The position numbers and the translations under genes are program-made. Of a stretch of 64,000 nt of DNA, positions 14,539 through 61,521 are shown piece after piece. The notes under the pieces are model-generated. The model did no database searches. It had not been told where the DNA came from and saw only the letters and a list, made by a program, of their open reading frames with translations. The stretch spans positions 254,196 to 318,195 of the forward strand of contig JBLYPV010000001.1 in NCBI GenBank assembly GCA_048538215.1, given 5' to 3'. Position 1 is the first letter of the stretch. Each line of letters opens with the position of its first letter. The DNA comes from Patescibacteria group bacterium (lineage in GTDB: Bacteria > Patescibacteriota > Minisyncoccia > Phycocordibacterales > GCA-2747955).

Positions 14539-16800
14539 ATGCAGGCTGATACCGACTTGAAACAAGTATTTCGCATAAGTTCTACTCAAGAAAAATCTCT
14601 CAAACGACTAGGCATAGAAAGCGTGAGAGATTTGCTCTATTATTTTCCCAAGCGATATGGTGACGCACAATCCTTTGCCCCGATTGCAGACCTTCGAGCA
14701 GGAGATACGCCAATAATTTATGCAGAGGTAAAATCCATTCGTGCTCGCAAAGCTTGGCACAACAAACAAAATCTTACAGAAGCTACGCTTGAAGATACAC
14801 GAGGAGATACGATCAAAGCAATTTGGTTTGCCCAGCCCTATATTAGTAAGAAGCTCGATATAGGTAGCCAGGCACGATTTATGGGAGTCATCAATGAGCG
14901 CAATGGCGCACTCGCCATAATCAATCCTGAATTTGAACGACTCAAAGAGATTCCCATTGAACAGAGTGGTAATCTCTTTGCTGATGACGCCAAGGCACTC
15001 GAGCAAACCCTCTACCCGGTATACAAAGAAACAAAAGGTATCACAAGCAAATGGATATATCACCATATCCAATCATTATTTGCCAAGGGTATTTTAGATT
15101 CGATACAGGATCCAATTCCTCAAGATATTCTAGAAAGATACCGTCTACCTTCACTTGCTCATGCTCTGCAGTATATTCACGGACCACGAAAGCAGGGTGA
15201 TGCTGATGTTGCCCGCAAGCGTTTTGCCTTCGAGGAAATGTTTTTTGCCCAACTTGTACGAATGGAAGAGCGAGCAAAATATGAAGCATCTGGAGCTTTT
15301 GCTATCAGTGAGACGAGTAGCGAAAAGATAGACTCATTCACCAATTCCCTTCCCTTTGTACTCACTTCTGGGCAAAAGAAAGCCACTGAGGCTATCTTGA
15401 GCGATATGCGCTCAGATACACCGATGTCTCGCCTCCTGGAGGGTGATGTGGGAAGTGGTAAAACAATCATTGCTGCCATAGCTTCTTTTGCAGCTATAAG
15501 CTCTCGCCCTAAAGATCAATCTGTGGGCTATCTACAAGTAGCCTATATGGCACCTACTGAGATTTTAGCTAAGCAAATTTTTGAAGAATTCTGCTCACTC
15601 TTTGCTGATTTTCCTGTCCAGATTGGGCTTATTACTGGTAATGAATGCAAAAAATATCCAAGTAAAACATCAGCACAAGCAACCACTGTGAGTAAATCAC
15701 AGCTTCTCAAATGGGTGCTCAATGGTGAGATACAGATCCTCATAGGCACCCACGCTCTTATCAGCAAGCAAGTATATTTTGAAAATTTAGGGCTAGTGAT
15801 TGTCGATGAGCAACACCGCTTTGGTAAAAAACAGCGAGCAGCACTTCGCAATAAGGGAGCTCTCAAATCAGCAGACAAGAAGACAGCCGATAAAAAAACA
15901 ATGCTCGGCAAGATGCAAAACTCAAAGATACAAAAAAAAGGAGTGGTGAATAATGATGATATTCTTCCTCACCTTCTATCAATGTCGGCTACCCCCATTC
16001 CTCGTACCCTCGCCCTCACTATATATGGAGATTTAGATCTCACTATTCTCGATGAGCTCCCACCGGGACGGCAAAAGATCCAGACCTCCCTTGTGCGACC
16101 AGGAAAGCGTGAAGATGCCTATGAGACAATCCGTACCGAGCTTCAAGCGGGGCGTCAGGCCTATGTCATTTGTCCTAGAATTGACGAGGCCGACCCTAGT
16201 CGCATTGGTGCTATCCACGCAGTAGCTGCAGAAAGTGAAGCCAAGCGACTACAGGCAGATGTTTTCCCAGAATATCGAGTAGGGGTGGTGCATGGTAAAT
16301 TACATAAAAATAAAAAGGAGGAAGTGATGAATGCTTTTAGGGATCACGAATTGGATATTTTGGTGGCCACCTCAGTAATCGAAGTGGGAGTAAATGTGCC
16401 CAATGCTACTTCTATTATTATCGAAGGAGCGGAGCGATTTGGTTTGGCCCAGCTACACCAGCTTCGTGGCCGAGTCATGCGATCCTCCCACAAGCCCTAC
16501 TGCTATATTTTTTCAGATAGCCAAAATGAAGATAGTCTCAAACGATTGCACGCTCTAACCACTAATTCAAATGGCTTTGCTTTGGCTGAAGCCGATTTAG
16601 AATCTCGTGGCTCAGGAGAATTACTAGGAGTGAAGCAATCAGGAATGAGCGACTTGGCAATGGAATCACTCAAAAATCTCAAGCTTGTGGAGGCCGCTCG
16701 CAAAGAGGCAATGGATATCATACAGAATGCTAGCCTCGAATCCCATCAAGCAATGCACCAACGATTTAGCGCAATCCAAGCCCAGGTGTATATGGAATAA
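14539..16800 (+). CDS. recG: ATP-dependent DNA helicase RecG
   Basis: Wedge/OB N-terminus, helicase motif I LEGDVGSGKT, DEQH box, helicase C-terminal domain. Confidence 0.9.
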   Translation: MQADTDLKQVFRISSTQEKSLKRLGIESVRDLLYYFPKRYGDAQSFAPIADLRAGDTPIIYAEVKSIRARKAWHNKQNLTEATLEDTRGDTIKAIWFAQPYISKKLDIGSQARFMGVINERNGALAIINPEFERLKEIPIEQSGNLFADDAKALEQTLYPVYKETKGITSKWIYHHIQSLFAKGILDSIQDPIPQDILERYRLPSLAHALQYIHGPRKQGDADVARKRFAFEEMFFAQLVRMEERAKYEASGAFAISETSSEKIDSFTNSLPFVLTSGQKKATEAILSDMRSDTPMSRLLEGDVGSGKTIIAAIASFAAISSRPKDQSVGYLQVAYMAPTEILAKQIFEEFCSLFADFPVQIGLITGNECKKYPSKTSAQATTVSKSQLLKWVLNGEIQILIGTHALISKQVYFENLGLVIVDEQHRFGKKQRAALRNKGALKSADKKTADKKTMLGKMQNSKIQKKGVVNNDDILPHLLSMSATPIPRTLALTIYGDLDLTILDELPPGRQKIQTSLVRPGKREDAYETIRTELQAGRQAYVICPRIDEADPSRIGAIHAVAAESEAKRLQADVFPEYRVGVVHGKLHKNKKEEVMNAFRDHELDILVATSVIEVGVNVPNATSIIIEGAERFGLAQLHQLRGRVMRSSHKPYCYIFSDSQNEDSLKRLHALTTNSNGFALAEADLESRGSGELLGVKQSGMSDLAMESLKNLKLVEAARKEAMDIIQNASLESHQAMHQRFSAIQAQVYME

Positions 16801-16813
16801 GTCACCATTTTGC

Positions 16814-17089
16814 TTAGCTAGTACGACTTTGTTTTTTGCGAAGCTCTTTGTATATTTTTTCACGAGTCTTTACTAATACTATTTTGATTCTTGTATTTTT
16901 TTCAAAGAAAATTACTCTATAGTCATCTCATCGTAATCTACAGAGGGGTTCGAATCCCTTGAGAAGTCGGGTATCATTTACCTCTCCCTTTCGTAATAAT
17001 TCTAATGTATGGGCAACTTGCTTTTGCTGTTTCTTAGGAAGAGATTGTATATATTCAAAAGATTGTTTTGAGAAATCTAATTTAATCAT
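16814..17089 (-). pseudogene. RelE/ParE-family toxin with a single in-frame TGA (codon 54)
   Basis: Translation MIKLDFSKQSFEYIQSLPKKQQKQVAHTLELLRKGEVNDTRLLKGFEPLCRLR*DDYRVIFFEKNTRIKIVLVKTREKIYKEL matches the RelE/ParE pattern (kkLkG...yRlRvGdyRviy...HRkdiY); TGA sits where the consensus has V/G. Confidence 0.7.
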
Positions 17090-17101
17090 TGAGCAAAGAT
17101 T

Positions 17102-17335
17102 TTAGAAATTCTCCGCTTTTTTTTGTACCAATAAACTCATTCTCTTCAAAAATAGGCTGCGCCCGACGGGCGAGATAAAATCTTCAAATGCCTCCATATC
17201 AGCGGTGGCAATCATATAAGCTGTTGGACGACCTCGTTTTGTTATAGCTACAGGAGATCAATATGCATCAATAAGCATCTCGCCAAATTTATTTTTTGCT
17301 TCGCTTGCTATATAAGTAGTAAACAATTTATTCAT
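17102..17335 (-). pseudogene. Phd/YefM-family antitoxin with a single in-frame TGA (codon 26)
   Basis: MNKLFTTYIASEAKNKFGEMLIDAY*SPVAITKRGRPTAYMIATADMEAFEDF...; 12-nt gap to the toxin start. Confidence 0.7.
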
Positions 17336-17471
17336 AGTCTATATGAATAGCCGAATTAGCTAATTCAGTCAATATCACTACATCAAATGTAGCTAGCTTA
17401 TCACTAAAAAATACGGCTAGCATAGCCGTATTCATAAGATAATTTATCCATTGCTGATATGAGAAAGAGAG

Positions 17472-17543
17472 TCCAACAGGCAGGGATCGAACCTGCGACC
17501 ACGAAGGTATAAGCTTCGCGCTCTACCACTGAGCTACTGTTGG
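17472..17543 (-). tRNA. tRNA with anticodon UAU (putative tRNA-Ile decoding AUA)
   Basis: Perfect cloverleaf CCAACAG/TA/GCTC-AGTGGTA-GAGC/G/CGAAG-CTTATAC-CTTCG/TGGTC/GCAGG-TTCGATC-CCTGC/CTGTTGG/A; anticodon loop CTTATAC puts TAT at positions 34-36. Confidence 0.7.
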
Positions 17544-17659: not shown

Positions 17660-18853
17660 CTATCTGACACGGCAGGAGCTTGTAAATTCTTTGATTAATC
17701 TATCCGTTGCGTCTTGCGTTTGGTAGCTAATAATCATATACCCTACATTTGTACGATAGAGCATAAGCACTCGTTCGATAGGAGAATTCCCATAATGGCT
17801 TGCCAATACTGTCGCCTGCCAATGATTTCCATACTCATCAGTATACGCTTTCTGATCTTGTATGACCCAGCTACGGAGGTAATCATCTCCTAAATCGGTA
17901 GGAGGTGCTCCTCGATTAAATTGCTTTATAATTTTTAGTATCGCTCTTTGATAGCTTGGCTCTACTTCACCCTCAATTAAAACATCCAGCCTATCTTGAC
18001 CTTCTTGATATTTCCACACCCAGAGATCACGCCCTTCATACTCATATGTAAGGATTGTATCCATATCTATAGGCGAAGGAAGAAAAAGCGCCCGCTTGTG
18101 ATTATAAAGCATCTTATTGGCATAAATGTGCTCGGCTATCTCTGTGCCCACATACCGCCAGTGCCATGGCTCGTATTGATATTGGGTAATGTCTTGTGCT
18201 CCATCAGGATATGAAAGCACAAAGCCATACTTGTATGCATTTTCTGCAAGCCATTCGTAGCCAGAAGCAGTGGCGCTTGGATAGCTAGAAATATCTATCG
18301 CCGTACCCAGCTGATGCTCACTCAAGCCAGGCAAGGCTGCACGCTCTCCCTGCTCATCCACTCCCGCATTATCCGCAAAACGCTCATACATTGCTTGTTG
18401 CTCTACTGATGATCGATAAGCTGAATTGACTCGGAGGTAGTGCCCTGCCTCGCGCCCTGATCGTATCAAGGCAATCAATGGCTCTTTCACCACCGCCCGT
18501 ACTTGTAGCACCCCTTGCTTGGGATGTGTATATTGATAGCCAAGTGAAACTAAATCACTCGGCACATAATTAGCCCGCAGTGGCGGACGATTATTATTTA
18601 TCTTTTGCAATAATGCATCATCACTAAATTGCTCAACATCACAAGAAAAATGAGCATAATTTTGTGCTCGCTCGAGAGCGTTCCAGCCCTCTAATCTTTG
18701 CTCAAATTGAGCACGTAGATAGGGAGTATAGCCATACTCCATATACAAGACCCAGAATGAAGCTACCGCTACTGCTCCCACAAGAGCTAACCAAAAATAC
18801 CATCCAAAAAATGCTTCCTTGCTATTTGTGTACTGCTTGTAATTATTGTCCAT
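17660..18853 (-). CDS. D-alanyl-D-alanine carboxypeptidase (VanY / peptidase M15 family) with N-terminal TM helix
   Basis: SAYRSSVEQQ...GLSEHQLGTAIDI zinc-binding motifs of VanY-type LAS peptidases. Confidence 0.75.
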   Translation of the reverse strand: MDNNYKQYTNSKEAFFGWYFWLALVGAVAVASFWVLYMEYGYTPYLRAQFEQRLEGWNALERAQNYAHFSCDVEQFSDDALLQKINNNRPPLRANYVPSDLVSLGYQYTHPKQGVLQVRAVVKEPLIALIRSGREAGHYLRVNSAYRSSVEQQAMYERFADNAGVDEQGERAALPGLSEHQLGTAIDISSYPSATASGYEWLAENAYKYGFVLSYPDGAQDITQYQYEPWHWRYVGTEIAEHIYANKMLYNHKRALFLPSPIDMDTILTYEYEGRDLWVWKYQEGQDRLDVLIEGEVEPSYQRAILKIIKQFNRGAPPTDLGDDYLRSWVIQDQKAYTDEYGNHWQATVLASHYGNSPIERVLMLYRTNVGYMIISYQTQDATDRLIKEFTSSCRVR

Positions 18854-18912: not shown

Positions 18913-19488
18913 CTACTCATTTCCCTCAGACACATCCTCCATATGTTCTCCCATAATTTGAGCCACCTGTGTACTCACACTATCATAATCAGGAAGCTCC
19001 AACTGAGTGCTAATCCCCAATAGCTTGAGAGTATCTGCCGTAGGCTCGTATATGACCTGATTTTCTAAATTACGCCGAGCTACCAACCCTCGTACGAGCA
19101 AATTACGAATTGAGTACATACTATTTACCCCGCGAATCGTATCTATTTCTGCTCTTGTAATTGGTGCTCTATATGCAATGACTGCGAGTGTCTCGAGTGC
19201 TGTCTTGGAAAGAGGAGCTTCTTTTTCTACCTTGCGTACTGAATCGATAAGCTTGCTCGTATCTGGGTGAGTGCCTAAGCTAATAGTAGTGGGTGTTTCT
19301 ACCAGCACAATCCCGCTCTCTCTCCGCATCCTACCAAGCTCCCCTACTGCCTCTTCAAGCTCTTCTAAACTTATTCCCACCAATTCTGCCACACGCTTTT
19401 TTCTGACCTCTTCATTGAGATAAAATAGGAGTGCCTCTATCTTTTGTAGCGTTGTGCTCATGCCAATTATTGTACCATCCATTTGCAA
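18913..19488 (-). CDS. scpB: segregation and condensation protein B
   Basis: Tandem winged-helix ScpB motifs (ALETLAVIAYRAPITRAEIDTIRGVNS...). Confidence 0.85.
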   Translation of the reverse strand: MQMDGTIIGMSTTLQKIEALLFYLNEEVRKKRVAELVGISLEELEEAVGELGRMRRESGIVLVETPTTISLGTHPDTSKLIDSVRKVEKEAPLSKTALETLAVIAYRAPITRAEIDTIRGVNSMYSIRNLLVRGLVARRNLENQVIYEPTADTLKLLGISTQLELPDYDSVSTQVAQIMGEHMEDVSEGNE

Positions 19489-19521
19489 AAGTCGATGCCT
19501 GTGGATATAATAGCCTCCATT

Positions 19522-19647
19522 ATGGCAAAACGAATTACTGGAGTAGGTAAAAATAAAGCTAACCGATCAAAAAAGACAGCCAAGCGCTTGGCTATCAAAA
19601 AAGATATGCTCGAAGCAAAGGCTCTCAAGCGGGGTAAAAAGAAATAA
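19522..19647 (+). CDS. small lysine-rich basic protein (41 aa), hypothetical
   Basis: ORF MAKRITGVGKNKANRSKKTAKRLAIKKDMLEAKALKRGKKK followed by a strong terminator; below the ORF-track cutoff. Confidence 0.35.
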   Translation: MAKRITGVGKNKANRSKKTAKRLAIKKDMLEAKALKRGKKK

Positions 19648-19656
19648 TATTATAAA

Positions 19657-19690
19657 AAAGAGAAGCCTCGGGCTTCTCTTTTTTATTTTG
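19657..19690. terminator. rho-independent terminator (AAGAGAAGCC-TCG-GGCTTCTCTT + T run), bidirectional
   Basis: Perfect 10-bp stem between convergent genes. Confidence 0.8.
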
Positions 19691-20063
19691 TATATATGGG
19701 AGTGTATGACTGACAGATATAGAGATCCGCATCCGCTGAATACTCACAATTCCATCCACAAGCATAGCCATCCCCTTCTCTGTCCTCTAGATAAAGCTTG
19801 CTCCTACCCCAATCACGACATCCAGCCCGAAAAGCAAATACCTCAGCGCTTTGTTCAAAAATAGTAGGATCATCTGCATAGCGAAAATAATAGCCCACCG
19901 TGTCTTGTTTCATAATAAAGAGCCAAAGATAAAAAACAGCAAAAAATAGAGCTATATATACCAACAAAGCTTTTGGGCTAATGGTAGAGCCTCCTGAATC
20001 ACTCATTGCTCTATTATATCCTGCCCCGGGTAGCCCACCAAGGGCCCCTTCCCCATTTTGCAC
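19683..20063 (-). CDS. Excalibur calcium-binding domain protein with N-terminal TM helix
   Basis: EDREGDGYACGWNCE resembles the Excalibur DxDxDGxxCE motif; N-terminal hydrophobic helix. Confidence 0.55.
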   Translation of the reverse strand: MQNGEGALGGLPGAGYNRAMSDSGGSTISPKALLVYIALFFAVFYLWLFIMKQDTVGYYFRYADDPTIFEQSAEVFAFRAGCRDWGRSKLYLEDREGDGYACGWNCEYSADADLYICQSYTPIYTK

Positions 20064-28244: not shown

Positions 28245-28258
28245 ATTATTTGCAAAGA

Positions 28259-28287
28259 AGAGCCGGCGCGTAAGCGCCGGCTTTTTC
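28259..28287 (+). terminator. rho-independent terminator (AGCCGGCGC-GTAA-GCGCCGGCT + TTTTT)
   Basis: GC hairpin plus T run after the kinase gene. Confidence 0.8.
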
Positions 28288-28305
28288 AAAATATACTCCC
28301 AAAAT

Positions 28306-28677
28306 TCACCCTATAGCTAAGCCATAAAATGGAGGATCATACCCTATGTGATATCTATCAAATAGGGTATTAGCAAATTCTATGCGTTGTAATTTGCTTC
28401 CCTCGCTGGATTTGCTGTGCCAAGCTCTTTCATCATAGAGAAACACTTCTTTACACACGGTATTCCAGAAATCTTCAAAAGTTTGTCGTGAGCCAAAATC
28501 TTTGACTCGAACGAGCTCCTGCCCAAACCAGAATGGGATGCTCCACTGCGCACGATTGTCGGGAGTATTCGTGAATTGCAAGATCATTCTTCCTCTCCTT
28601 ATTTTGATTTGCAAGCAAAAGCCCGAGCTTGCTGCTCGGGCTTGCTTTGGCGCTGTTATGAAATTTAGACAAAGCAA
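28306..28677 (-). CDS. hypothetical protein (likely 93 aa from internal Met MILQFTN...)
   Basis: ORF; no family assignment. Confidence 0.4.
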   Translation of the reverse strand: MLCLNFITAPKQARAASSGFCLQIKIRRGRMILQFTNTPDNRAQWSIPFWFGQELVRVKDFGSRQTFEDFWNTVCKEVFLYDERAWHSKSSEGSKLQRIEFANTLFDRYHIGYDPPFYGLAIG

Positions 28678-28819
28678 ACACGACCAGCCAAATGGTGGCG
28701 AATAATACTAATAATAATGTTTGTTCTCTGTCGCATAGAAAAAATATAACATAAGATAAAACAAAGAAAAAGTCCCAGGCACATCAGCGCGCCCGGGACC
28801 AAAATCGAGATAGAGGTCG

Positions 28820-29227
28820 TCACATGCAGGCACCCCCAGGGGTGCTTATTATGGGTTCTCCCGTCCGCCGAACCTCGCTCGGAATCCGATGCTTTTCGAG
28901 CTTATGCCTAATAATCACATCGTGCAGGTTTTTAAACACCTGATTGGCACTTTGCGCCCCATGAAAGGCTCGCTCGGCGATCTGGACCGCTTCGTATGTT
29001 GGTCCAAATTCCTCATAAGAGTGCCGCAACACTTCTTTCAAGATCGCGACCTCATCGTATTTCCATGCCCACCGCGTATAACCCTCGCAGGCACCAAATG
29101 CGCCACGATACTTACGGGTTATACGGTGCACCATACGCATCGTTGGATTGGTGAATCCAATTGCCCGAAGGGCGTCTTTCACCTGTTCCCTGGTTTCCAT
29201 CATGCCTCTTCCTCCTCTAATGATCAT
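28820..29227 (-). CDS. hypothetical protein, GC-rich (foreign) gene
   Basis: About 58% GC ORF in AT-rich genome; no recognisable family. Confidence 0.5.
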   Translation of the reverse strand: MIIRGGRGMMETREQVKDALRAIGFTNPTMRMVHRITRKYRGAFGACEGYTRWAWKYDEVAILKEVLRHSYEEFGPTYEAVQIAERAFHGAQSANQVFKNLHDVIIRHKLEKHRIPSEVRRTGEPIISTPGGACM

Positions 29228-29305
29228 CTACTTGCCTGCCAGCTGATCCTGGTAAGCAAGATAAATGTCCCAACGCTACTTTCCGATAAGTAGCGTTGGG
29301 AAATT

Positions 29306-29650
29306 TCAAACACGGACTGCTCCAATACCTTGGGCTTCCCCATCATTTCCCGGCGGATTGAGCAAGCGGTGCAACCTATCCATGACTTCAAGGCTCGGCT
29401 TTGACCCTGGGAAAAAATATTTCCGATTGGTCAGGCTACCCTCGAAGCCAATTTTGGAAAGAATTCGCCCTTCAAGCTCCTTTTGGCCTATACCACTTGC
29501 CCATACTCTTGTGTTCTCCACAAAATATATGTTTTGGTCATCAAGTACACAAGACCATGTCCAACGAGCTTTGCCCTGAGGCTTAGGTGGGAAACATCGC
29601 ACTCGATATTCGTCTATAAAATATGTCTTATCTTTCATTGTACCCTCCAT
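29306..29650 (-). CDS. hypothetical protein (114 aa) in GC-rich island
   Basis: ORF; no recognisable family. Confidence 0.45.
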   Translation of the reverse strand: MEGTMKDKTYFIDEYRVRCFPPKPQGKARWTWSCVLDDQNIYFVENTRVWASGIGQKELEGRILSKIGFEGSLTNRKYFFPGSKPSLEVMDRLHRLLNPPGNDGEAQGIGAVRV

Positions 29651-29882
29651 ATTTTAAAATTACAGTGTGTTTATCTACCTATACCTATTGGCTACAAAAA
29701 ACAAAGAGTCCGCTCTTTCGAGTGGACTCTTTGCTGGGTATCTTGGGTATATATGAGAAGCTACACAGTAAACAATCCACTCGACTTGGTAAGTAGGAGT
29801 ACCACAAGAATATTGAGTAGATTGTTGTTTGTATGCCTATGCATATACTGAAAATAACATAAAATTATATCCCCCGCAATCA

Positions 29883-29903
29883 CTTAGGGACCGGGTCCCT
29901 AAG
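29883..29903. repeat. REP palindrome copy 2 (CTTAGGGACCGGGTCCCTAAG), 3 nt downstream of RAYT stop
   Basis: Perfect 10-1-10 palindrome identical to the copy at 143. Confidence 0.85.
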
Positions 29904-29905
29904 TG

Positions 29906-41868: not shown

Positions 41869-41998
41869 ATTGCGCCAGAGTATATCAGAAGCTAAGCTAA
41901 ATACCAATTGCCTTATCATAATCTATGCGTATAATACAGCCCGACGCGAAATTTCTCGCGTTTGTGCTTTCACTAAGATAAGGGAGGACTATTTGAAA

Positions 41999-42211
41999 AT
42001 GAAGCTCTCGGTCAAAAAAACAAGCGGAGAGGCATTTCTCCGAAGCCTCGAAAAGAAGGTGCTCGAGCTTGATTTTGCCATCAAGCGCGAGGAGAAATGC
42101 CCAGCCCAAAACTGGGCACTTATCCATGAGCTCAAGAAGCAGAGGCTCCTGATCAAGGACAAGATGGCTCTGCTTGAGCGCGAGCTTGCGCCAGACAGAG
42201 CTACCGTCTGA
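41999..42211 (+). CDS. DUF465 (YdcH-like) small coiled-coil protein
   Basis: HELKKQRLLIKDKMALLE matches the DUF465 signature; AAGGGAGGA RBS upstream of MKLSVKK. Confidence 0.6.
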   Translation: MKLSVKKTSGEAFLRSLEKKVLELDFAIKREEKCPAQNWALIHELKKQRLLIKDKMALLERELAPDRATV

Positions 42212-42318
42212 GGTCTGAGAAATGGCGTGGGGGGTCTATTCTCCCCCGCCGACTCACAAAATATATTTTCCGCCCCAACAAATGGGCGTTTTATTTTTTA
42301 AAATTCTGAGGTCGCGGA

Positions 42319-58889: not shown

Positions 58890-58928
58890 ATAAAAATCTC
58901 AAGAGCAATATCCCTCTTGAGGTTTCTA

Positions 58929-59163
58929 GTGTGTTTATTGTACCAAGCTCGAACCTATTTCCAATCCAAACACTAGCAACGCGCGGAGCACACAGTGGCT
59001 TTGTATTTCACCGTACGCGTTGGAGTTTATCTCAATGCTACTCAGCGCCTCGGGGCGCTCGGTTCCTCGCGCAGCAATTCCCAAAATTTTCTTGCCTTAA
59101 AGAAAAAGCGAAAGGGGGTGTGGGGGAAGTCGCCAAAAAGTTGAAAGAAAATTTTGGGGTTGC
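58929..59163. repeat. IR-A: left arm of about 235-bp perfect inverted repeat (partner 61153..61389)
   Basis: Reverse complement of 61153..61389 is identical over about 235 bp; GC-rich relative to surroundings. Confidence 0.9.
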
Positions 59164-59431
59164 TTTTGCCTTCCAGTCTTCCAAAAATTCTTCACAAAGC
59201 CCTTTTAAGAAGTAGGGGCTTTGTTCATCACTTTCTCCAGACTGGTGGCACCCGAGGCGCTCTCGTATACAAAGCTCGTGGTAGTTTTATACACGCTCAC
59301 ACCCCACCACCTCGCATTGGCCGCTCACTTCGTTCGCGTGGCCTGCTCTGTGGTGGGGTGCTCGCGCAGGGGGCTTCGTTTGAGTTTGTGGTATTTAAAG
59401 GTTCACGCTTCGCGCAAACCATTGAAAAATA

Positions 59432-60739
59432 TTATTTCTCCAAATCCTCTAAGTCTTGATCTAAGATTCCAAGCTGGGTCAGTAGAGCAATATGTTCGCT
59501 ATTGTTAGGGTCGTATTTCCCAATCGTAAAGGTTTCGACAACCTCACTGTTTTCTGATGCTAAAGTCCAGATTGCTCGATTACCAAAATATGACATATCT
59601 TTGGGATAAACAGCGCCCGGAGTTTTGCATGTTGTGCCTCTGAAAATACGCACACAATCATTGTAGGCAGTTGTAGCAGCTGCTTCTGGCGTGACGTCTT
59701 TTTTGGGTGATGCAAGTAGCCGATAGTCAGACATAATTTCATGAGTACGTCTGAAATCTAGTTTTTCACCAGTTATACCTTTTGCCAATGCTATGGAAAA
59801 AAATCTTGGGACTCCAGCAAATTCTTTCGCCCCAGTGACCTGTTGCTCATTGTATGTGGCTATTCCTTCTTCGGCTTTTAGATATCTATCTAAACCGAGT
59901 CCAAGCAACTGCAAACGAGAACGCTCACCATTACTTCGTCTTGCAACATGAGTTTTAATCTCGTGTTCAATCAATCCTTTCAACTTCTTTTTACTAATAT
60001 TTCTAGCAAGCAGTTTGTCTTCAGCTGGAACACGAACGACTTTATGTTCTTGACTGACGCTAAAATTCGAGATGCCTGATTCAGTATCGACAACAACTTT
60101 CCAGTCGGTTGCGTCAATTTCCTGTAACGCTTCTTCAAACGCAGCCACTGCTTCATCTACTGATTCTAGCTTTCCTGAAATATCCTCGCCCTCGGGCAAA
60201 ATTGATTTGTCAGCACCTTGACCAGCTGGTAGTGATACTTCGCTGAAAACTGCATGCAACTTTTGAGCCGCAGCTGCTTTATTAGCGTCTTCAGACGCTA
60301 AGTTAGCTTGAACCAATTCTTTTACATGTTCAAGTACATACCCAATGTCAGCAATTTCTGGCGTGCCATAGATAAAATCTGCATAGCGAGAAAACATTTT
60401 ATCGTTGCCCTCTCGTGCCGCTTTTAGCATCCGTAATGTAGCAAGAGATTCATTGATTTTTGTGCGGTATATTTTTTTTACGGCATCGTTTTTCTCTAGC
60501 TCTAAAACATCTTCTTTCAGAGCGAGTAAGGCGTGTTCTCTCTCTTCAAGATTGAAAGATTCTAATTCGGGGTAATCAAGAGTTGGGTTGTCAACTTCAC
60601 CATTCAAAAATTTCCCTTTTTCCGCTTCGCGCACCTCTTTTTTACCTGTAAGTTTTTCGTAATCTTCAAAAGCAACTTCTTCAAAACGCTTATACCAGCG
60701 ACTATCAAGCTTTTCTTCATGTGACTGTATTTTTTCCAC
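59432..60739 (-). CDS. DUF1704-family (QEGLA-motif) HExxH metallopeptidase-like protein
   Basis: HEIKTH zinc motif and EEGIATYNEQ (QEGLA-like) region. Confidence 0.6.
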   Translation of the reverse strand: MEKIQSHEEKLDSRWYKRFEEVAFEDYEKLTGKKEVREAEKGKFLNGEVDNPTLDYPELESFNLEEREHALLALKEDVLELEKNDAVKKIYRTKINESLATLRMLKAAREGNDKMFSRYADFIYGTPEIADIGYVLEHVKELVQANLASEDANKAAAAQKLHAVFSEVSLPAGQGADKSILPEGEDISGKLESVDEAVAAFEEALQEIDATDWKVVVDTESGISNFSVSQEHKVVRVPAEDKLLARNISKKKLKGLIEHEIKTHVARRSNGERSRLQLLGLGLDRYLKAEEGIATYNEQQVTGAKEFAGVPRFFSIALAKGITGEKLDFRRTHEIMSDYRLLASPKKDVTPEAAATTAYNDCVRIFRGTTCKTPGAVYPKDMSYFGNRAIWTLASENSEVVETFTIGKYDPNNSEHIALLTQLGILDQDLEDLEK

Positions 60740-60845: not shown

Positions 60846-61139
60846 ATGTCATTTGAAAATATCCCGTCTCAAGAAAAACCAGTTAAATTGTCGCTGTGTG
60901 CAAAAAATATCACTACTGGTGAAGTAACGAAAGAGCCCTTAAAAGAATATAAAAATTTAGATGTTGCAAGGCAAGATTTAAAATTTGAAAGACTTAGAGG
61001 CCTAGAGGAAGGATCAGAAGAGTATGATTTAGAATCTGATGACCCAACAGAGCAAGCTTTTGCAGAACGAGAACAGGAACAATACAGACTTAATCATGAA
61101 TTTTATTTTGAAGATGAAAACGGAAATCGTGTCGAATAA
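60846..61139 (+). CDS. hypothetical acidic protein (97 aa), divergent from the DUF1704 gene
   Basis: Intact ORF. Confidence 0.45.
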   Translation: MSFENIPSQEKPVKLSLCAKNITTGEVTKEPLKEYKNLDVARQDLKFERLRGLEEGSEEYDLESDDPTEQAFAEREQEQYRLNHEFYFEDENGNRVE

Positions 61140-61152
61140 CTGATTGAATTAG

Positions 61153-61389
61153 CAACCCCAAAATTTTCTTTCAACTTTTTGGCGACTTCCCCCACACCCC
61201 CTTTCGCTTTTTCTTTAAGGCAAGAAAATTTTGGGAATTGCTGCGCGAGGAACCGAGCGCCCCGAGGCGCTGAGTAGCATTGAGATAAACTCCAACGCGT
61301 ACGGTGAAATACAAAGCCACTGTGTGCTCCGCGCGTTGCTAGTGTTTGGATTGGAAATAGGTTCGAGCTTGGTACAATAAACACACCAG
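61153..61389. repeat. IR-A': right arm of the 235-bp inverted repeat
   Basis: See IR-A. Confidence 0.9.
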
Positions 61390-61521
61390 AATAGAACTTT
61401 CGGGTTCTAAACCAACTTTGGCATGGGCGGCGCGTAGCGCCGCCCATGCCGTTGGCGGCTCTGTGGAGCCACCAACCGAGGACGAGACAACCACGCGACG
61501 GCCGCTGAGGCGGAGGTGCGA
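61384..61521. repeat. IR-B: left arm of 138-bp perfect inverted repeat (partner 63087..63224); contains a 14-bp perfect GC hairpin
   Basis: Reverse complement identical to 63087..63224; directly abuts IR-A'. Confidence 0.9.

Follow-up and report, generated by a model that had tools for sequence, protein, structure and literature searches.

Can two neighbouring genes each be interrupted by a TGA codon, and by nothing else, in a genome that reads the standard genetic code? This question is raised by a toxin-antitoxin (TA) cassette located in the window, i.e. the whole stretch of 64,000 nucleotides (nt) analysed here, from contig JBLYPV010000001.1 of a Patescibacteria group bacterium. The cassette consists of a Phd/YefM-type antitoxin gene and a RelE/ParE-superfamily toxin gene. 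An earlier note on this DNA had proposed that it might come from a lineage in which UGA is a sense codon. In the reading favoured here, with moderate confidence, it is instead a recently decayed accessory TA module in a standard-code genome, with one ordinary nonsense mutation per gene. The elements of the cassette are the following (all positions refer to the window):

17102 to 17335, minus strand: Phd/YefM-type antitoxin gene, probable pseudogene, 77 codons plus TAA, with one internal TGA
17258 to 17260, minus strand: in-frame TGA of the antitoxin (codon 26), in the context TAT TGA TCT
17090 to 17101, minus strand: spacer of 12 nt, read from the sequence, between the antitoxin TAA and the toxin ATG
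16814 to 17089, minus strand: RelE-like toxin gene of the RelE/ParE superfamily, probable pseudogene, 91 codons plus TAA
16928 to 16930, minus strand: in-frame TGA of the toxin (codon 54), in the context CGA TGA GAT

The two genes lie on the same strand and share one reading frame, with the antitoxin directly upstream of the toxin. Their translations (MNKLF...LIDAY*SPVAITKRGRP... for the antitoxin, where the TGA precedes the PVAITKRGRP strand, and ...KGFEPLCRLR*DDYRVIFF...KIVLV... for the toxin) bear out the description given in the earlier note, namely a canonical pair (17335-17102 and 17089-16814) with a 12-nt gap and exactly one TGA per gene in otherwise full-length frames. In both genes, that TGA is the sole interruption: there is no further stop and no frameshift. 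Two TGA in 168 TA codons, versus none in 16,505 codons of host genes, is a significant difference (Fisher p=1e-4).

The family assignment of the antitoxin is based on its matches to TIGR01552 phd_fam (27.3 bits; cutoff 20.8) and phrog_2268 (E=2.9e-5), together with 65% identity over residues 5-53 to a PF02604-positive antitoxin (locus L050); with the TGA scored as X, its own PF02604 score is 28.5 bits, below the cutoff of 29.8. The toxin matches phrog_1213 'RelE-like toxin' at full length (residues 1-81, E=1.1e-12), and more weakly Pfam Gp49 (PF05973; 20.9 bits, below the 23.9 cutoff) and the PDB structure of Pyrococcus horikoshii aRelE (1wmi; E=0.049). Neither the toxin nor the antitoxin had a match in word-indexed protein searches, and no TA paralogues were found elsewhere in the window. 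A HMMER scan of 1.84 billion representatives yielded 83 toxin homologues, the best of them at 41% identity. Against a profile of the 29 best homologues, the toxin scores 103 bits over residues 1-86, that is, across the TGA. Two of the homologues (P0124 and P0129) carry PF05016 ParE_toxin, and each of the four closest toxins (P0123, P0124, P0125 and P0129) has a PF02604 antitoxin directly upstream. Residues L32, R51, Y57, R58, R76 and Y80, invariant or nearly so in the 29-homologue alignment, are all retained, and the TGA lies upstream of Y57-R58, R76 and Y80. Judged by these matches, the pair is a type II TA system made of a Phd/YefM-type antitoxin and a RelE/ParE-superfamily toxin. The toxin is RelE-like and presumably a ribosome-dependent mRNA-cleaving enzyme, although sequence alone does not separate RelE from ParE, which poisons gyrase.

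With regard to known Phd/YefM-RelE/ParE modules (1wmi PHS013, 3hs2, RelB 9g12, PHROG 1213/2268, TIGR01552), the window pair shares: (i) the antitoxin-toxin order and the small gene size; (ii) the N-terminal antitoxin motif AKNKFGE...PVxIxKxGRP; and (iii) the toxin motifs R-x-R-x-G/D-x-Y-R and R...Y. It differs from them in the in-frame TGA of each gene and in the junction: in homologous modules the end of the antitoxin gene runs 8 or 14 nt into the toxin gene, while here both genes are 12 nt apart and in frame. The antitoxin C-terminus is 7-12 residues shorter than in six homologues; at the junction (window 17090-17104), its TAA falls where the homologues go on with Leu or Phe plus 6-11 residues. 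The remodelled junction may be a third lesion, or sign of erosion, but it could equally be natural variation. In any case, with at most 41% identity for the toxin and 65% for the N-terminal domain of the antitoxin among some 15 billion proteins, the pair is apparently a unique and very divergent member of its family.

The antitoxin motif was also met in other combinations. Phd-type antitoxins with the AKNKFGEM motif (loci L020-L045 and L049) are followed by at least five kinds of downstream partner: RelE-like, ParE-like, Fic/Doc-like and PIN-like proteins, and a large methyltransferase-like protein. As far as these predicted partners go, such variety would be a clear example of antitoxin-toxin module shuffling.

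Which residues do the two TGA codons replace? For the antitoxin, the comparison relied on the six distinct antitoxins of the nearest modules (L050, L051/52, L053, L054, L024 and L028), taken from the contigs of the four closest toxins and from two RelE-linked modules of a metagenome scan. The column of the TGA is Arg in all six, within the motif [AY]-x-R-[AE]-P-V; the codon was read in L050 (CGT), L051/L052 (CGC), L024 (CGG) and L028 (CGA), and the residue in L053 and L054. Gly occupies this column only in distant Phd proteins, e.g. P1 Phd (3hs2). CGA is common in the host (250 of 16,505 codons). The most fitting account of the antitoxin TGA is therefore a putative one-step change, CGA>TGA, in which a C>T transition would have struck the conserved Arg codon.

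The alignment of the toxin to its profile is gap-free, and the TGA sits one column ahead of a conserved Gly. Among the 29 homologues, the TGA column holds Val (10), Ser (8), Ala (6), Ile (4) and Thr (1), and neither Gly nor Trp. Profile emissions agree, with V 0.22, S 0.13, I 0.13, A 0.12 and L 0.075 on the one hand, and R 0.022, G 0.021, C 0.013 and W 0.006 on the other. The following column is Gly in 25 of the 29; the query has Asp there, as do two of the 29. The best-fitting one-step neighbours of the TGA are TCA (Ser) and TTA (Leu), both of which would be acceptable at this position. Taken on these alignments, neither column appears to favour Gly or Trp. The earlier note had placed both TGA codons where the family often has Gly or a small residue. 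For the toxin this holds as regards a small or hydrophobic residue, but never Gly; for the antitoxin it does not, the column being Arg in the nearest subfamily.

The host genes of the window give a clear answer on UGA as a sense codon. In the 49 open reading frames (ORFs) of at least 150 amino acids (aa), which amount to the 16,505 trusted codons used throughout, there is no in-frame TGA against 164 TGG and about 1,100 GGN codons, and the statement in the earlier note that the housekeeping genes are uninterrupted is hereby upheld. Given this absence of UGA among so many Trp and Gly codons, there is no established UGA=Trp or UGA=Gly code in this host. Out-of-frame TGA is abundant in the same 49 ORFs, and SecA, RecG, VanY and ScpB are as long as their orthologues. 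When TGA is read as sense, coding coverage of the window grows by no more than two percentage points (85% to 87%), through stretches that have non-coding scores. Other TGA-containing ORFs that appear under such a reading (e.g. 28451-29227, 18913-19761 and 59027-59422) were rejected as coding, their extensions having non-coding scores and no family matches.

Other features of the host bear on the same question. None of the six tRNAs of the window has a UCA anticodon. The SecA of the window is 100% identical to MFW0871107.1 of the host metagenome-assembled genome (MAG), on a contig of 622,806 bp. NCBI annotated this MAG with code 11, and its protein set lacks any full-length TA product in which G or W stands for the TGA. 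Named SecA matches at 60-65% identity belong to Kaiserbacteria, Campbellbacteria, Taylorbacteria and Parcubacteria, and among reference genomes it is the Moranbacteria that supply the best RecG relatives (approximately 40% identity). From these named SecA and RecG matches only, the host appears to be Parcubacteria-like and not a member of a code-25 clade. A scan for the GGQ motif detected no release-factor gene in the window or in the retrieved loci.

The cassette lies in a slot whose surroundings are conserved and whose content is not. The features concerned are:

14539 to 16800, plus strand: recG, conserved flank, convergent with the cassette, its 3' end 13 nt from the toxin stop (Pfam RecG_wedge, DEAD, Helicase_C)
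17378 to 17392, minus strand: palindrome CTACAT-TTG-ATGTAG upstream of the antitoxin, candidate operator (from the sequence)
17410 to 17432, minus strand: perfect 10-bp hairpin with a T-run between the tRNA-Ile and the cassette (inverted repeat)
17471 to 17543, minus strand: tRNA-Ile(UAU), conserved landmark beside the cassette (ARAGORN, Rfam)
17660 to 18853, minus strand: vanY-type D-Ala-D-Ala carboxypeptidase gene, flank beyond the tRNA (Pfam VanY 108 bits, synteny)

In relatives the gene order is scpB, vanY, tRNA-Ile(UAU), a variable segment, recG (convergent) and secA, and recG synteny is found in loci L018, L019, L046 and L048. The slot holds the tRNA alone between vanY and recG in L018, and other genes (a metallophosphatase and/or hypotheticals) in L019 and L046; in L048 a transposase adjoins recG. 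The tRNA-Ile(UAU) directly follows vanY in L018 (7570-7644), L019 (4158-4231) and L046 (5402-5477). The guanine-cytosine (GC) content of the two TA genes is 0.37 and 0.32, versus 0.419 +/- 0.037 for host genes; their codon-usage scores, 0.28 and 0.23, are host-like. Since relatives lack the cassette at the syntenic site, and since it occupies a variable slot next to a tRNA and has a GC content below that of the host, it looks like an accessory, laterally acquired insertion specific to this lineage, and the suggestion of the earlier note that the module had arrived by transfer is well founded. Around the cassette, neither an integrase nor an att-like direct repeat of the tRNA 3' end was seen.

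The hairpin at 17410-17432 likely terminates the tRNA transcript. The palindrome is contained in a leader of approximately 75 nt before the TA pair and adjoins a TTGACT hexamer (17372-17367); both may form a candidate operator/promoter, an inference only, and a scan for consensus promoters made no call at this site. The Rfam scan of the window returned its six tRNAs and nothing else, whether beside the cassette or within the segment 28245-29905.

The tRNA-Ile(UAU) deserves a remark of its own. The window copy is 100% identical to that of L018 despite approximately 71% SecA identity, and ATA is common in the host (306 of 16,505 codons). Given the conservation of this tRNA and the frequency of ATA, the lineage may read AUA by means of a UAU anticodon, instead of or besides the usual lysidine-modified CAU tRNA.

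How could a standard-code genome end up with two such genes? In the favoured reading of recent decay, the cassette would have been inserted laterally between tRNA-Ile(UAU) and recG and later inactivated. The toxin would have been hit first, by a change of TCA or TTA to TGA ahead of its catalytic C-terminal half. As loss of the toxin would be neutral or beneficial, selection on the antitoxin would then have gone, and a C>T change would have turned its conserved Arg codon CGA into TGA. Because a dead toxin frees the antitoxin to decay, the two nonsense events are not independent. The decay is likely to be recent, as there are neither frameshifts nor indels and as the sequence before and after each TGA has kept its conserved residues and a codon usage like that of the host. 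The earlier note had mentioned, as an alternative to transfer from a recoded lineage, that both genes were independently inactivated: inactivation is what the evidence favours, while independence is not. Likewise, its argument from the improbability of two coincident nonsense codons loses weight for this same reason, and retains its force only as regards the identity of the two stops.

Several points weigh against the reading of simple decay. First, if each gene received a single nonsense mutation, codon content gives a probability of only about 0.03-0.05 (i.e. some 3-5%) that both stops are TGA; the chance that a random nonsense substitution produces TGA is 0.11-0.18 in the antitoxin and 0.29-0.30 in the toxin. 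Second, decaying bacterial genes usually gain indels at least as often as nonsense mutations, and the TA pair has none. Third, coding scores on both sides of the TGA codons are 0.22-0.40, compared to an average of 0.30 for the host and of -0.19 off frame; apart from the TGA codons, antitoxin and toxin look fully functional as far as their predicted products can tell. The homologues found are all too distant for a ratio of nonsynonymous to synonymous substitutions (dN/dS) to be computed across the TGA codons, no close enough orthologue having been found.

A fourth group of objections concerns the use of TGA as a terminator. TGA ends none of the 61 well-supported host genes (0 of the 49 large ones), compared to 13 of 91 in relatives (Fisher p=0.002), the relatives being five loci (L018, L019 and L046-L048) with SecA proteins 71-75% identical to that of the host. 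TGA-ended genes in these relatives include vanY, apbE, a MarR-type gene (HTH_27) and spoU; the vanY orthologue ends with TGA in L018 and L046, and with TAG in the window. When the three TGA-ended ORFs of the window are added, the comparison becomes 3/64 vs 13/91 (p=0.06). If the true TGA usage were about 5%, the probability would be 0.04 for 0/61 and 0.6 for at most 3/64. The stops of the window are biased towards those read by release factor 1 (RF1), with approximately 38 TAA, 19 TAG and no TGA in well-supported genes. TAG also exceeds TGA in the same five loci of relatives. Such stop usage is unusual for bacteria of approximately 42% GC.

The best supported of the three TGA-ended ORFs serves as a control:

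41999 to 42211, plus strand: ydcH (DUF465), 70 aa, TGA-ended control gene outside the cassette (PF04325 28.1 bits; cutoff 25)

NCBI names its product 'YdcH family protein' (MFW0871141.1). The would-be extension of 30 codons past its TGA scores as non-coding (-0.03) and contains two hairpins and a terminator-like site (42271-42288). No ydcH homologues were present in the retrieved loci or plasmids for a comparison of C-termini. The other two, hypothetical ORFs 29306-29650 (annotated by NCBI, 114 aa) and 28820-29227, are also TGA-ended; past the TGA of the latter the codon score is -0.08, and the 9-codon extension of the former is too short to score. Both ydcH and the 114-aa product are in the code-11 protein set of the host MAG. 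Nevertheless, all three ORFs have below-average codon scores (0.11-0.18 vs 0.30), and ydcH carries a strong Shine-Dalgarno-like sequence, AAGGGAGG, 11 nt before its ATG (41980-41987), a type of motif found upstream of only two of the 49 large host genes. This motif hints that ydcH itself is a recent import, and the TGA-ended ORFs in general may be imports. Since they are atypical in this manner, efficient UGA termination in the native genes of the host is no more than likely.

The segment that contains the two hypothetical ORFs is singular in other respects. Nothing in window 28245-29905 (approximately 1.6 kb) matches Pfam, PHROG or Rfam, the GC content there is slightly higher, and its ORFs 29306-29650 (ACKKL4_01565) and 28820-29227 combine a TGA stop with sub-average codon scores. 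It may be another foreign islet.

The objections to simple decay are, at the same time, what sustains the first of the alternatives, i.e. that the stops are leaky and that low-rate UGA read-through, by a near-cognate tRNA-Trp or similar, maintains a hypomorphic TA module under selection. Tolerance of TGA only, the leakiest stop, would account for both codons being TGA, an outcome with a probability of about 0.03-0.05 under random nonsense mutation; the catalytic and motif residues past the TGA codons are intact, with no other defect; coding scores beyond them are host-like; and the lack of TGA terminators in the 61 well-supported genes is compatible with weak activity of release factor 2 (RF2). 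On the other hand, Trp or another residue would replace an Arg conserved in all six nearest antitoxins, and these TGA codons are conserved in no second genome found. A weak stop context, UGA-C, is known from Escherichia coli; the contexts here differ, being UGA-U and UGA-G. No stimulatory RNA structure was detected downstream of either TGA (folding z = +0.33 and +1.06). On balance, read-through under selection is rather unlikely.

A more far-reaching version places the weakness in the host itself, where UGA would be unassigned or weakly terminating in an early stage of stop-codon reassignment, so that native genes would have purged TGA and the codon would survive in recently acquired genes only, at the ends of the three atypical ORFs and inside the two TA genes. 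The contrast in TGA stops with the relatives (0/61 vs 13/91, p=0.002), the vanY gene that ends with TGA in L018 and L046 but with TAG here, and the low codon scores of all three TGA-ended ORFs are what would be expected. Nonetheless, TGA is never sense in native genes (0 vs 164 TGG and about 1,100 GGN), a terminator-like hairpin comes right after the ydcH TGA with a non-coding extension, no tRNA(UCA) exists among the six tRNAs of the window, and the depletion of TGA stops falls within ordinary variation if TGA usage is about 5% (P=0.04, or P=0.6 for at most 3/64). An early stage of reassignment in this host is consequently considered quite improbable. The broader proposition, namely a lineage of the Candidate Phyla Radiation (CPR) with UGA near-purged and with poor UGA termination or RF2 loss, in which the TA UGA codons are read through, is judged unlikely as well, if slightly less so.

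The origin put forward in the earlier note fares a little worse still. The donor would have been a bacterium with code 25, in which UGA is Gly and which is that of the Gracilibacteria/Absconditabacteria, or a code-4 bacterium or recoded phage with UGA as Trp, and the cassette would have been dead on arrival. It was indeed laterally acquired and is AT-richer than the host; Gly does occur at the antitoxin column in remote Phd proteins, P1 Phd (3hs2) among them; and 'RLRGDDYR' would come near the family motif R-x-G-D-Y-R if a shift of one residue were allowed. But the alignment of the toxin is gap-free and its column, with Val, Ser, Ala, Ile or Thr, lacks G and W in 29 homologues, while the antitoxin column is Arg in six of six members of the nearest subfamily, and the codon usage of the cassette is host-like. 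The earlier note had named beforehand what would refute this origin, namely that homologues in UGA-recoding lineages are no closer than those in standard-code lineages, and the origin fails by that measure. Five of the six nearest modules were found on contigs that use TGA as a stop, with a TGA-ended gene (the toxin in L051, a methyltransferase in L053, the antitoxins in L054, L024 and L028), and the genes checked on them had no internal TGA; the contig of L050 is uninformative as to stop usage. Finally, a scan of viral contigs gave one remote antitoxin relative, joined to a methyltransferase-like gene, which lends nothing to an origin in a recoded phage. With the residues at the two columns, the nearest homologues and the codon usage of the host all against it, a donor with UGA as a sense codon is very doubtful.

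There remain two explanations that can be treated briefly. As the source is a MAG, one or both TGA codons might reflect a minority allele or a mistake in sequencing or assembly. This is nonetheless highly unlikely: both changes are substitutions outside homopolymers, there are no broken genes in the rest of the 64 kb, and two independent errors within 330 bp, both giving an in-frame TGA, would be a very unlikely event. Insertion of selenocysteine has in its favour the identity of the codon alone and can practically be dismissed, with no hairpin resembling a selenocysteine insertion sequence downstream (z +0.33 and +1.06), homologues that have Arg (antitoxin) or V/S/A/I (toxin) and never Cys; TA proteins, moreover, are not known to be selenoproteins.

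A recently decayed module would have its counterparts elsewhere. Decayed TA genes are known, for instance, in Rickettsia and Mycobacterium leprae, i.e. in reduced or host-associated genomes. Like degenerate chromosomal TA loci, the window module is accessory, lies in a small genome (622-kb contig) and has lost both frames while being still recognisable; unlike them, its decay is minimal and free of indels, which points to a very recent or incomplete loss of function. Reassignments of UGA to Trp have been described in Bacillota, Pseudomonadota, Verrucomicrobiota and Actinomycetota (PMC13462651). With such lineages and those of code 25, the window shares in-frame UGA in intact-looking CPR genes and little TGA termination. 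It differs from them in that: (i) its conserved genes contain no UGA; (ii) the UGA columns are Arg and V/S/A/I; (iii) its host is Parcubacteria-like; and (iv) TGA ends at least one supported gene. Searches of the literature turned up neither recoding of UGA nor loss of RF2 for Parcubacteria-type Patescibacteria, and no TA pair with UGA codons in both genes.

Apart from the cassette, another segment of the window merits mention. A perfect inverted repeat of 241 nt (58924-59164 and 61151-61391) brackets 1,986 bp that contain an ORF for a MATCAP-like peptidase (59432-60739, minus strand; PF08014 78.9 bits) and a small ORF (60846-61139, plus strand). The arrangement may represent invertible DNA or a composite mobile element, or else have arisen in assembly.

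Gene flow and genome reduction commonly leave decayed TA cassettes behind, and in this sense the finding is an ordinary one. It also means that an in-frame TGA in accessory genes of the CPR is not by itself a sign of code 25: before such a code is inferred, both the residues of the nearest homologues at the TGA columns and the use of UGA in the conserved genes of the host should be considered. Any wider potential lies only in the scarcity of TGA terminators in this host compared with its close relatives. If that scarcity were genome-wide and prfB were missing, the lineage would offer a testable intermediate stage of stop-codon reassignment; if true, it would be an intermediate with unassigned or ambiguous UGA in a CPR clade outside the Gracilibacteria/Absconditabacteria.

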